From assembly GCF_003018235.1 (NCBI RefSeq), contig NZ_CP027437.1: a stretch of DNA of 64,000 nucleotides. One strand, given 5' to 3'. The notes beneath the pieces are model-generated. The model saw nothing but the letters and a program-made list of their open reading frames with translations. It made no database searches and was not told the DNA's origin. Positions 8,667 to 56,964 of this stretch are shown piece after piece (position 1 is the first letter of the stretch; each line of letters starts with the position of its first letter). Position numbers and translations under genes: made by a program. This DNA is from Escherichia coli. Its GTDB lineage: Bacteria > Pseudomonadota > Gammaproteobacteria > Enterobacterales > Enterobacteriaceae.

Positions 8667-9682
8667 GATTTCGCCTCCAGATACGTTGTTAACCAGTCAG
8701 GAATGCGTGACTCCAGCCACATTTGTGGATGAAGTAATGTACCGCCAATAAAGCCAACATGACCGCCATGTTCAGTCAGCTGATACTCCACCTGCGGGGG
8801 GAGACTTTCCGGTTTCGGGATCACCTGATGATCCATAAACGGATCGTCTTTGGCGTGAATAATCAGCGTCGGTTTGGCTATCCGATTGAGCATCGGCATG
8901 GCGCTACACTGACGATAATAGTCGATAGCGTCAGCGTAGCCGTGAATTCTGGCGGTGATGAGATCGTCAAATTCACGGATGCGACGTACCGATTTTAACT
9001 GCGCGAGATTAATCGGCAGCGTTCCGGGGTAGGCAGCCAGCTTGCGTGCGGCATTGGCTTTTAACAGGTTCAGCAAGTAACGCTGATAGACGCGGGAAAA
9101 GCCCTTTTCCATATGATAGCTACAGGCTTCCAGCATAAACGGCGCAGAGACAATCACCGCCGCATCAATCGGGAGATCATTGCCTTCTTTTGCCAGCAAA
9201 CAGGCCAGCATATTACCGCCGAGCGAATAGCCGACGGCAGCCGTTGGCGCATGACCAGACTCGCGTTGCAGCCAGCGTAAAAACCAACTGGCGTCTTCGG
9301 TTTCGCCCGAATGGTAAATGCGGTGCATACGGTTTGGTTCACCGCTGCATCCGCGAAAATGCATCACCACGCCCAGCCAGCCGCGCTTTTGCGCCGCCTC
9401 AACCAGACCGTGGGCGTAAGGGCTATTGAGACTGCCTTCCAGCCCGTGAAATACCACTAAACGCGGTTTATGACGCGCCTGTGCAGGGTCTTCACTCCAC
9501 GCGAGATCGACAAAATCGCCGTCGGGCAACTCCAGTCGCTGCCAGTGCGGGGTGAATTTCACCTTGCGACGAAACAGACGCGGCAGCATGGTTTGTAGAT
9601 GACAATTGCTAAAGCCGCGCATAGGGGTGAATTCAGCACTGCTGCTGAATTCATTGGCATCGGTCGTCGTTATCTTCGCCAT
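8660..9682 (-). CDS. yheT: Alpha/beta hydrolase YheT
   Basis: 340-aa ORF with GYSLGG nucleophile-elbow motif. Confidence 0.85.
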
Positions 9683-14998: not shown

Positions 14999-15027
14999 AA
15001 AAAAGCGGGGGAATCCCCGCTTTTTTT
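14999..15027. terminator. Bidirectional rho-independent terminator between convergent slyD and slyX
   Basis: Hairpin agcgggg-gaat-ccccgct flanked by A tract upstream and T tract downstream. Confidence 0.7.
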
Positions 15028-21504: not shown

Positions 21505-22746
<1,242 letters not shown>

Positions 22747-22770
22747 TTACACGTTAATTAGTTTCGAATT

Positions 22771-22797
22771 AAAAAGGGCGCTTCGGCGCCCTTTTTG
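22771..22797 (+). terminator. tufA rho-independent terminator
   Basis: Hairpin gggcgc-ttcg-gcgccc followed by TTTTT. Confidence 0.85.
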
Positions 22798-23037
22798 CAT
22801 TTGTTGACTGCATATCTTATTCGTACTGTCAGAACGAATAAATTATTCATATTTAAAATATAAATTAAATTTAACATCTTAAATATGAATGTTTCTGTTT
22901 TTAAAAAGCTTCTTTTGTCAGGCTTTTTTCTTATTTTTAATGCCGTAATTTAATTCATATTGAAGGGTTCTCGTAAAACGTAAATAATTCCTGCGTAGGA
23001 CTTTTGTTTTGCAGTTTTTACGTCACAAGGGATTATA

Positions 23038-25740
23038 ATGAAATTAAATATATTTACTAAATCTATGATTGGTATGGGGCTGGTGTGTTCCGCTCTGCCA
23101 GCATTGGCAATGGAAGCATGGAATAACCAACAAGGTGGTAATAAATATCAGGTTATTTTCGATGGCAAAATTTATGAAAATGCCTGGTGGGTTTCTTCTA
23201 CAAATTGCCCGGGAAAAGCAAAAGCAAATGATGCAACTAACCCATGGCGTTTAAAGCGTACCGCGACAGCTGCTGAAATTAGTCAGTTTGGCAATACACT
23301 TTCCTGCGAAAAGAGCGGCAGCTCATCTTCTTCAAATTCAAATACGCCTGCATCCAATACGCCGGCTAATGGCGGTTCGGCTACACCAGCACAAGGCACT
23401 GTTCCGTCTAATTCTTCTGTAGTTGCCTGGAATAAACAGCAGGGCGGTCAGACCTGGTATGTTGTCTTTAATGGTGCGGTATATAAAAATGCCTGGTGGG
23501 TAGCCTCTTCTAACTGCCCGGGTGATGCGAAAGGCAATGATGCCAGCAACCCATGGCGTTATGTTCGTGCCGCTACGGCAACGGAAATCTCAGAAACCAG
23601 TAATCCACAGTCCTGTACTTCAGCACCACAGCCTGCGCCGGATGTGAAACCGGCACCGGACGTTAAACCGGCTCCTGATGTTCAGCCAGCCCCAGCTGAT
23701 AAGTCAAACGACAACTATGCTGTCGTAGCCTGGAAAGGTCAGGAAGGTTCTTCTACATGGTACGTTATCTACAACGGCGGCATTTATAAGAACGCCTGGT
23801 GGGTAGGCGCGGCAAATTGCCCAGGCGATGCGAAAGAAAACGATGCCAGCAACCCATGGCGTTATGTTCGCGCGGCAACAGCAACAGAAATCAGCCAGTA
23901 TGGTAACCCAGGCTCCTGTTCCGTTAAGCCGGATAATAATGGCGATGCTGTGACTCCGGTTGATCCAACTCCGGAAACACCGGAAACTCCGGTGACCCCA
24001 ACCCCGGATAACAACGAGCCATCAACACCAGCGGATAGCGGTAACGATTACTCATTGCAAGCGTGGAGCGGCCAGGAAGGTAGCGAAATTTACCATGTCA
24101 TCTTCAATGGTAATATCTATCAGAATGCCTGGTGGGTTGGTTCTGAAGATTGCCCACGTGGCACTAGTGCAGAAAACTCCAATAACCCATGGCGTCTCGT
24201 GCGTACAGCTACCGCTGCGGAAATGAGTCAGTACGGTAACCCGACTACCTGTGAAATTGATAATGGCGGCGTCATTGTTGCGGATGGTTTCCAGGCCAGC
24301 AAAGCGTACAGCGCGGACAGCATCGTAGATTATAACGATGCACATTATAAAACTTCTGTCGATCAAGGCGCATGGGGCTTTGTCCCAGGCGGTGATAACC
24401 CGTGGAAGAAATACGAACCGGCGAAAGCATGGTCCGCATCCACTGTGTACGTGAAAGGTGATCGCGTTGTTGTTGATGGGCAGGCTTATGAAGCGCTGTT
24501 CTGGACGCAAAGTGACAACCCTGCTCTGGTTGCGAACCAAAACGCCACCGGTAGCAATAGCCGCCCGTGGAAGCCGTTAGGTAAGGCTCAGAGCTATAGC
24601 AACGAAGAGCTGAATAATGCGCCGCAGTTTAATCCAGAAACGCTTTATACCAGCGATACGCTGATTCGCTTTAACGGTGCGAACTACATTTCTCAGAGTA
24701 AAGTGCAGAAAGTTTCTCCTTCTGACAGCAACCCGTGGCGTGTTTTTGTTGACTGGACCGGAACCAAAGAACGTGTAGGTACGCCGAAGAAAGCGTGGCC
24801 GAAACACGTTTATGCACCGTATGTTGACTTTACGCTGAATACGATCCCGGATCTGGCTGCGCTGGCTAAGAATCATAACGTCAACCACTTCACGCTGGCG
24901 TTTGTGGTGAGTAAAGATGCGAACACCTGTCTGCCGACATGGGGTACCGCTTACGGTATGCAGAATTACGCTCAGTACAGCAAAATCAAAGCTCTGCGTG
25001 AGGCTGGCGGCGATGTGATGCTGTCTATCGGTGGTGCTAACAACGCTCCGCTGGCTGCTTCCTGTAAGAACGTAGACGATCTGATGCAGCATTATTATGA
25101 CATCGTTGATAACCTGAACCTCAGAGTCCTGGACTTCGATATCGAAGGCACCTGGGTTGCGGATCAGGCATCTATTGAACGCCGTAACCTTGCTGTGAAG
25201 AAAGTGCAGGATAAATGGAAGTCAGAAGGCAAAGATATTGCTATCTGGTACACCTTGCCAATTCTACCGACTGGCCTGACGCCGGAAGGGATGAATGTCC
25301 TGAGCGATGCCAAAGCGAAAGGTGTTGAGCTGGCGGGTGTGAACGTGATGACAATGGACTACGGTAACGCGATTTGTCAGTCTGCAAATACCGAAGGCCA
25401 GAACATTCACGGTAAGTGTGCAACGTCTGCGATTGCCAACCTGCATTCACAATTGAAAGGCCTCCATCCCAACAAGAGCGATGCAGAAATTGACGCTATG
25501 ATGGGTACCACGCCGATGGTTGGCGTGAACGACGTTCAGGGCGAGGTGTTCTATCTCTCTGATGCTCGTCTGGTCATGCAGGATGCGCAGAAGCGTAATC
25601 TCGGTATGGTTGGTATCTGGTCAATCGCGCGCGACCTGCCGGGCGGCACTAACCTGTCTCCGGAATTCCACGGCCTGACTAAAGAACAGGCACCGAAGTA
25701 CGCATTTAGCGAAATCTTCGCGCCGTTTACTAAGCAATAA
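23038..25740 (+). CDS. chiA: Periplasmic/secreted endochitinase ChiA (modular; GH18-like catalytic domain)
   Basis: 900-aa ORF with signal peptide, four ~65-aa repeated modules, Pro/Thr-rich linkers and C-terminal LDFDIEG motif. Confidence 0.9.
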   Translation: MKLNIFTKSMIGMGLVCSALPALAMEAWNNQQGGNKYQVIFDGKIYENAWWVSSTNCPGKAKANDATNPWRLKRTATAAEISQFGNTLSCEKSGSSSSSNSNTPASNTPANGGSATPAQGTVPSNSSVVAWNKQQGGQTWYVVFNGAVYKNAWWVASSNCPGDAKGNDASNPWRYVRAATATEISETSNPQSCTSAPQPAPDVKPAPDVKPAPDVQPAPADKSNDNYAVVAWKGQEGSSTWYVIYNGGIYKNAWWVGAANCPGDAKENDASNPWRYVRAATATEISQYGNPGSCSVKPDNNGDAVTPVDPTPETPETPVTPTPDNNEPSTPADSGNDYSLQAWSGQEGSEIYHVIFNGNIYQNAWWVGSEDCPRGTSAENSNNPWRLVRTATAAEMSQYGNPTTCEIDNGGVIVADGFQASKAYSADSIVDYNDAHYKTSVDQGAWGFVPGGDNPWKKYEPAKAWSASTVYVKGDRVVVDGQAYEALFWTQSDNPALVANQNATGSNSRPWKPLGKAQSYSNEELNNAPQFNPETLYTSDTLIRFNGANYISQSKVQKVSPSDSNPWRVFVDWTGTKERVGTPKKAWPKHVYAPYVDFTLNTIPDLAALAKNHNVNHFTLAFVVSKDANTCLPTWGTAYGMQNYAQYSKIKALREAGGDVMLSIGGANNAPLAASCKNVDDLMQHYYDIVDNLNLRVLDFDIEGTWVADQASIERRNLAVKKVQDKWKSEGKDIAIWYTLPILPTGLTPEGMNVLSDAKAKGVELAGVNVMTMDYGNAICQSANTEGQNIHGKCATSAIANLHSQLKGLHPNKSDAEIDAMMGTTPMVGVNDVQGEVFYLSDARLVMQDAQKRNLGMVGIWSIARDLPGGTNLSPEFHGLTKEQAPKYAFSEIFAPFTKQ

Positions 25741-25779: not shown

Positions 25780-25908
25780 TCAATGGGCTACTTTTGGTAG
25801 CCCATTATTTTTATTCATATTTCTATTCTTTGCTTAAAAAAGAGTCTTTCCGTAATTGAAATAAGAACTATTTTCATTTATTTTTGAAGAAAGTATACGG
25901 GAGTCTCT

Positions 25909-46545: not shown

Positions 46546-46570
46546 TACAGTACACTCTCTCGATACGAAT

Positions 46571-46601
46571 AAACGGCTCAGAAATGAGCCGTTTATTTTT
46601 T
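46571..46601 (+). terminator. S10 operon rho-independent terminator
   Basis: Hairpin aaacggctca-gaaa-tgagccgttt followed by a T run. Confidence 0.8.
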
Positions 46602-56835: not shown

Positions 56836-56964
56836 GTTATTCTCCCTATGAAGCCGACAATCATAAGTCTAACAAATGTTAAGCTATTTTCCTGCCAGGA
56901 ATGGATTTAATTAATCCTTGATAATCAAAGGGAAATAATAAGGCGTCATTAGACGCCTTATTAA

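Follow-up and report, generated by a model that had tools for sequence, protein, structure and literature searches.

The window, by which we mean the whole 64-kb stretch of Escherichia coli DNA analysed here, carries a 25-bp near-perfect palindrome in the spacer between tufA and chiA. Read directly at 22817-22841, the palindrome is ttattcgtactgTcagaacgaataa, that is, TTATTCGTACTG-T-CAGAACGAATAA; complementarity extends over 11 of the 12 arm positions and is perfect in the outer 8 bp, and the left arm TTATTCGTACTG differs from the reverse complement of the right arm, TTATTCGTTCTG, only at A22825/A22833. The last base of the tufA stop codon is 22746, and the tufA terminator forms a stem-loop at 22770-22797; the palindrome begins 20 nt past this stem, and its 3' edge lies 197 bp from the chiA ATG (23038). 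These values agree with an earlier note on this DNA, which had reported the same coordinates, a single mismatch and perfect 8-bp outer arms, and had placed the palindrome 20 bp after the tufA terminator and about 200 bp before chiA. The interval contains the following features:

22770-22797, + strand: tufA intrinsic terminator, a 12-pair stem with 6 G-C pairs and flanking A and T runs (terminator scan)
22817-22841, no strand: near-perfect palindrome, arms 22817-22828 and 22830-22841, centre T22829, A/A mismatch 22825/22833
22835-22847, no strand: overlapping perfect 13-bp palindrome GAATAAATTATTC, made up of the right arm and a third TTATTC(A) copy at 22843
22845-22890, no strand: AT-only inverted repeat adjoining the palindrome, 20-nt arms (22845-22864 and 22871-22890), 85% complementary, 6-nt loop
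22960-22995, + strand: chiA core promoter, -35 TTGAAG at 22960-22965, -10 AATAAT at 22983-22988, transcription start at about 22995
23038-25740, + strand: chiA, bifunctional chitinase/lysozyme, 900 aa in this strain

The chiA upstream spacer is 26% GC, and the palindrome, with G or C at 8 of its 25 positions, is the sole G+C-containing island within this tract. The hexamer ATTC[AG]T, a pattern picked post hoc, is present in five copies in the 239-bp spacer where 0.55 are expected. No regulator gene is adjacent to the palindrome, and a search of the 64-kb window at up to three mismatches found no second copy of it. In the RefSeq record of MG1655, the tufA-chiA spacer carries no annotation. The papers that we searched contain no description of the palindrome and give its sequence only as part of a primer with which a tufA replacement was verified by PCR (PMC5371648); the original report on the chiA promoter (Francetic et al. 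2000, Mol Microbiol 35:1506) was outside the scope of this search.

The K-12 chiA transcription start has been mapped to NC_000913.2 position 3467918 and was later confirmed with 5'-RACE (PMC3950696), and a SELEX peak for the RNA polymerase-RpoS holoenzyme at 3467930 agrees with it (PMC5493296). NC_000913.3 places the beginning of chiA at 3469853 and the end of tufA at 3470145, giving a 291-bp spacer equal to that of the window, with zero indels between K-12 and this strain. Given equal spacers without indels, the chiA start should therefore lie 43 nt before the ATG, at about 22995 in the window. TTGAAG/AATAAT at 22960/22983 is the only promoter-like site that we found in the spacer, and it agrees with the mapped start. 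Relative to this start the palindrome spans approximately -178 to -154, with its centre near -166, far upstream of the core promoter; in K-12 it corresponds to NC_000913.3 3470050-3470074.

The literature lists the chiA product among the substrates of the Gsp type II secretion system encoded next to it. The length of ChiA varies among E. coli strains from about 690 to 900 aa, 799 aa being a common length (proteins P0001-P0083; L007), and the upstream spacer is unchanged; it looks as if carbohydrate-binding repeats at the N-terminus had been gained and lost.

Chance expectation and hairpin potential

To gauge how unusual the palindrome is, dyads were defined by 12-nt arms with at most one mismatch and a loop of at most 5 nt. 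The window holds 11 of these, against 0.79 expected from dinucleotide shuffles and 0.58-0.68 from local-block shuffles. The other ten are G+C-richer (GC 0.36-0.71, versus 0.32 for the palindrome), and the four that were inspected (near 15000, 22771, 46570 and 55258) resemble hairpin terminators. For AT-rich dyads (GC of 0.4 or below) the expectation is 0.13-0.15 per window, with a probability of about 0.13-0.14 of meeting at least one; for the 239-bp spacer alone, P is approximately 0.02. The palindrome is somewhat above chance, a result that is suggestive, not compelling, and by chance alone a 5-Mb genome would be expected to contain a few tens of dyads like it. Further long dyads, with moderate or low GC, are found at 9627-9654, 46569-46596 and 56936-56963 of the window, for example GTGAATTCAGCA-CTGC-TGCTGAATTCAT.

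As a dyad directly downstream of a gene, the palindrome bears some likeness to an intrinsic terminator, but it is AT-rich and weak and lacks a T run, and the true tufA terminator precedes it by 20 nt. Its RNA hairpin amounts to -6.7 kcal/mol on the + strand and -6.8 kcal/mol on the - strand, with eight mostly A-U pairs and a two-pair tip, and the nucleotides that follow it, ATTATTCATATTT, contain no T run. The terminator scan called 22770-22797 and nothing else there. An intrinsic terminator, with a G+C-rich stem of at least five pairs and then a T run, is ruled out by the weak AT-rich hairpin and the missing T run, and the earlier note was right to discount termination on the latter ground. 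Matches in Rfam were all sub-threshold and driven by the tufA terminator.

The palindrome might instead act as a nucleic-acid hairpin of another kind, either as a weak back-up stem-loop affecting the stability of the 3' end of tufA read-through RNA, or as a DNA cruciform or single-strand hairpin. Complementarity runs unbroken along the arms, the fold is better than those of shuffled sequences (z = -2.6 for the + strand and -2.2 for the - strand), and one inner pair shows a seemingly compensatory change between E. coli and L017, one of the diverged loci described below. Against this, the hairpin is worth only -6.7 kcal/mol with no U run after it, it lies downstream of a strong terminator (the 86-nt fold containing that terminator reaches -29.9 kcal/mol), no Rfam match rises above threshold, and relatives that retain the tufA terminator have not kept it. 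We consider a hairpin function very unlikely.

Conservation and the dimorphic chiA segment

Over window positions 22700-23100, identity is 100% with an O169:H41 strain and 98% with K-12. We compared 11 E. coli haplotypes with spacer identities of 94-100%, among which the 25 bp of the palindrome contain one variable site and are invariant in eight. The variant, T22818A, is found in BL21, A23 and 042, where it breaks an outer pair, and chiA is intact in these strains. The flanking positions 22816 and 22842 vary, and the AT-only inverted repeat at 22845-22890 is the most variable part of the spacer within the species. As approximately 23 of 239 spacer positions are variable (about 10%), 2.4 variable sites would be expected in 25 bp where one is seen, so the palindrome is not significantly more conserved than the spacer around it.

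Outside E. coli, seven syntenic tufA-chiA-bfd loci were compared (L017, L019, Citrobacter rodentium L020, Enterobacteriaceae UBA5654 L005, L026, L027 and Enterobacter L028), with ChiA proteins 67-77% identical to that of the window. The earlier note had proposed conservation across Enterobacteriaceae chiA upstream regions as a check on function, and the outcome is negative: neither the palindrome nor a dyad of the same sequence with 10-nt arms is present in any of these seven diverged tufA-chiA spacers. Their spacers are mostly unalignable with that of the window, and, not being homologous, their lack of the palindrome says little against an operator. The exception is L017, the only spacer that can be aligned at the palindrome, from a locus with bfd-bfr 83% identical to those of E. 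coli. The homologous stretch there, TTATTAACAATG-T-CATTTAAGATAT, has the same centre, but complementarity is limited to 7 of 12 positions, and A..T stands in place of an inner C..G pair. This pattern, from a single comparison, would fit an older quasi-palindrome that was perfected in the E. coli lineage.

Two further observations concern this region. In strain KFu022 (L006 3001-3100) an IS1 element is inserted in the right arm of the palindrome, at the equivalent of 22838/22839 (…cagaacgaa / GGTGATGCTGCC…), and the sequence from the insertion into the N-terminus of chiA is deleted. C. rodentium carries a second GH18 gene after chiA (L020 5322-7424), at the place that bfd-bfr occupy in E. coli; it also has an AT-only palindrome with 10-nt arms, ATTAAAATAT-C-GTATTTTAAT, right after the tufA terminator, unrelated in sequence to that of E. 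coli.

The spacer and chiA are carried by 3150 of 5426 complete E. coli genomes (about 58%), and the tufA-rpsJ interval is dimorphic within the species, from 22798/22799 to about 41500 of the window (L001, L002). In chiA-negative genomes (for example, O157:H7 and AR_0015), identity to the window ends at 22798, the end of the tufA terminator, and an unrelated 182-bp spacer joins tufA directly to bfd. Between the haplotypes, as judged from two chiA-negative genomes, bfd is 76% and bfr 80% identical, whereas tufA is 100% identical up to its terminator; of gsp, these two genomes retain only a prepilin-peptidase gene of 155 aa, compared with the 225-aa gspO of K-12. Since identity stops at 22798, the palindrome belongs to a large dimorphic segment, 18 bp in from its left edge.

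This position raises the possibility that the palindrome is a relic of a junction, that is, the remnant of a recombination or insertion site at the left end of a horizontally exchanged chiA-bfd-bfr-gsp segment. The split between haplotypes 18 bp to its left, and the drop from full identity in tufA to 76% and 80% in bfd and bfr, are consistent with this, as is an exact 12-bp direct repeat, TTATTCATATTT, that flanks chiA at 22843-22854 and 25811-25822. However, the ORF list contains no integrase or transposase in the segment, no further copy of the arms occurs at the boundary next to rpsJ or at any other place in the window, no match for the palindrome was found in plasmid or phage collections, and L017 has the same junction sequence without a good dyad. 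A junction origin therefore appears distinctly unlikely. The copies of the direct repeat lie in the upstream and chiA-bfd spacers and are absent from the chiA-negative haplotype; in AT-rich DNA such a repeat could be due to chance.

Candidate regulators of chiA

From its position and symmetry, the earlier note had suggested that the palindrome is the operator of a dimeric regulator, and had added that it is no consensus LexA or CRP site. The latter statement stands. The LexA box has the consensus CTGT-N8-ACAG within TACTGTATATATATACAGTA, and the best overlap with the palindrome reaches 6 of 8 core positions (CTGT-N8-ATAA) and 12 of 20 over the full box. For CRP, with the consensus TGTGA-N6-TCACA, the best overlap is 6 of 10, which approximately 1.8% of window positions equal. 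H-NS reportedly has a high-affinity nucleation motif, tCG(t/a)T(a/t)AATT, said to have been described by Lang et al. in 2007; the best match to it is 6 of 10 on strict and 7 of 10 on degenerate scoring (ACGAATAAAT), values equalled at about 1-2% of window positions. Fur, GlpR and EvgA gave no good match across the palindrome.

A closer likeness is to the site of LeuO, whose high-affinity core is a 19-bp palindrome of 7-bp half-sites 5 bp apart (Fragel et al. 2019, PMC6698644); the text of that paper gives the core in words, and does not name chiA. Re-derived from K-12, the cas core is ATATTCATACTGTGAATAT, or ATATTCA-TACTG-TGAATAT (L022 2421-2439), and the leuO core is ATATTGATTTGGTGAATAT, or ATATTGA-TTTGG-TGAATAT (L021 516-534). 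Like these, the palindrome is an AT-rich dyad upstream of an H-NS-silenced gene; 11 of the first 13 nucleotides of the cas core are common to the palindrome (TTATTCGTACTGT), with half-sites TTATTCG in the palindrome and ATATTCA in cas. Its half-sites, however, are separated by 11 bp instead of 5 bp, that is, 6 bp too far, and there is no symmetric T-N11-A. Scored as a LeuO core (ATATTCA/TGAATAT, 5 bp apart, T-N11-A), the palindrome attains an unremarkable 8 of 14 in the 7-5-7 register, and this candidate was rejected. Allowing up to three mismatches, the only LeuO-like core in the spacer is at 22843-22861, and such matches are expected by chance.

NagC/Mlc bind 23-bp dyads, and a connection of chiA with chitin or GlcNAc metabolism would make biological sense. 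The nagB box, TTTAATTTGCGATACGAATTAAA, contains the half-site TACGAATTAAA, which the palindrome arm TACGAATAAGA matches at 9 of 11 positions, but the half-sites of the palindrome are shifted 3 bp outwards on each side and the TT/AA at +/-5,6 is half present. We built a crude NagC matrix from three sites (nagE box, nagB box and LEE1), the nagE and nagB boxes being recovered from K-12. As a NagC/Mlc operator (a 23-bp dyad with a T-tract and an A-tract and TT/AA at +/-5,6), the centred 23-mer scores -1.4 bits, against 14.9-16.7 bits for the training sites, and was rejected. Within chiA itself, about +157 from the start, this crude three-site matrix gives 12.5 bits to GTTATTTTCGATGGCAAAATTTA (23152-23174), where the training sites score 15-17; it is the second-best match in the 64-kb window, and with six matches of at least 10 bits there it may be due to chance.

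The regulator with established relevance to this gene is the BglJ-RcsB heteromer, which activates H-NS-silenced chiA; lacZ fused to the tufA-chiA spacer responds to this heteromer in a strain deleted for leuO, which places the cis element in the spacer, where it was reported as unmapped (PMC3950696). The authors found no BglJ-RcsB box at chiA, their final motif giving no significant match there, and mutation of a predicted motif about 150 bp upstream of chiA had no effect (Salscheider et al. 2014, PMC3950696). Using published coordinates we located the bgl box, ACTTTATAAATTCCTAAAA; its best chiA counterpart is 22840-22858, centred near -146. This is probably, from its placement, the motif that was mutated, and it adjoins the palindrome without covering it. 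The palindrome arm TATTCGTA matches the RcsB-side core wwTTCykA at 7 of 8 positions, upstream of a proven BglJ-RcsB target. The known boxes, in contrast, lie at -52 to -79, are asymmetric and carry AATTCYTAA (bgl, leuO), whereas the palindrome is symmetric and centred at -166. A search of 22747-23037 for the RcsB box TNRGA-N4-TCYNA found none at up to one mismatch. By these site criteria, with no RcsB box and a core match of 7 of 8 but at -166, the palindrome does not fit an RcsB or BglJ-RcsB box.

What, then, can be said of the operator reading more generally? In its present form it would make the palindrome a distal operator, bound by a dimeric protein with a modulating effect on the H-NS silencing of chiA. 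This could be the unmapped BglJ-RcsB element, a site for another H-NS antagonist of the LuxR or LysR type, or one recognised by an uncharacterised E. coli regulator, with BglJ-RcsB or a similar protein the most plausible. At about -166 such a protein would disrupt or nucleate an H-NS filament instead of contacting RNA polymerase. Long continuous palindromes can be real operators, as with repressors of the TetR family. The local improbability of the dyad (P about 0.02), the five ATTC[AG]T copies (a post hoc count), the resemblance of the arms to half-sites of LeuO (ATATTCA) and NagC at nagB (TACGAATTAAA, 9 of 11) and the 7 of 8 match of TATTCGTA to wwTTCykA all point towards an operator, as do the location of the palindrome within the spacer that gives BglJ-RcsB activation in a leuO-deleted background (PMC3950696) and the invariance of its 25 bp in 8 of 11 haplotypes while 22816 and 22842 vary.

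The evidence on the other side is of several kinds. An operator should be conserved in orthologous promoters, yet all seven syntenic spacers outside E. coli are without the dyad and within E. coli its conservation does not exceed that of the flanks. The window has no second copy, and no cognate regulator gene lies nearby. The half-sites are 6 bp too distant for LeuO or NagC geometry, with -1.4 bits on the crude NagC matrix against 15-17; no RcsB box occurs in the spacer at up to one mismatch; and the BglJ-RcsB final motif is not significant at chiA, where mutating the motif at about 150 bp was without effect (PMC3950696). Symmetry is continuous through the 12-nt arm, centre included, and does not resolve into two contact blocks one helical turn apart; with half-site centres 18 bp apart, the half-sites would face nearly opposite sides of the helix. 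On balance we regard an operator as a tentative possibility, and this part of the earlier note receives no support from the tests run. The narrower proposal that the palindrome and the adjacent third TTATTC copy together form the cis element for BglJ-RcsB relief of H-NS silencing, or a candidate site for another E. coli regulator, seems to us improbable.

Origin and significance of the palindrome

The reading that we prefer, with moderate confidence, is that the palindrome is a functionally neutral, lineage-specific dyad in the H-NS-silenced region upstream of chiA. It occupies the distal part (approximately -178 to -154) of this AT-rich silenced DNA, where it would have no dedicated function; it lies where the accessory chiA-bfd-bfr-gsp segment has its left edge, and takes no part in ending tufA transcription. 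Its near-perfect, continuous symmetry may be best explained by drift in AT-rich DNA, and an older quasi-palindrome may have been made more regular by intrastrand template switching. The existence, position and weak hairpin of the palindrome, its absence from the orthologous spacers and its poor fit to the sites examined are direct results, whereas we infer both neutrality and mutational origin from several observations. With 0.6-0.8 such dyads expected per 64 kb, the contribution of chance is not negligible; the palindrome is absent from all seven diverged syntenic spacers, and T22818A is tolerated in strains with intact chiA; and there is no other copy in the window, no match in the plasmid and phage collections and no Rfam family. 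Set against neutrality are the local P of about 0.02, the position of the palindrome as a G+C island in a 26% GC tract, the post hoc excess of ATTC[AG]T, the presence of a BglJ-RcsB element in the spacer (PMC3950696) and the 7 of 8 match of TATTCGTA to wwTTCykA.

The value of this analysis is negative, in that annotating the palindrome as regulatory would not be justified from sequence alone. Were it an operator after all, it would be symmetric, far upstream and unusual in having half-sites 18 bp apart from centre to centre, and would offer a handle on the activation of ChiA, a cryptic, H-NS-silenced chitinase. The sturdier local observation is that a segment present in about 58% of E. coli genomes starts 18 bp to the left of the palindrome, and that the alternative haplotype at this position is deeply diverged.
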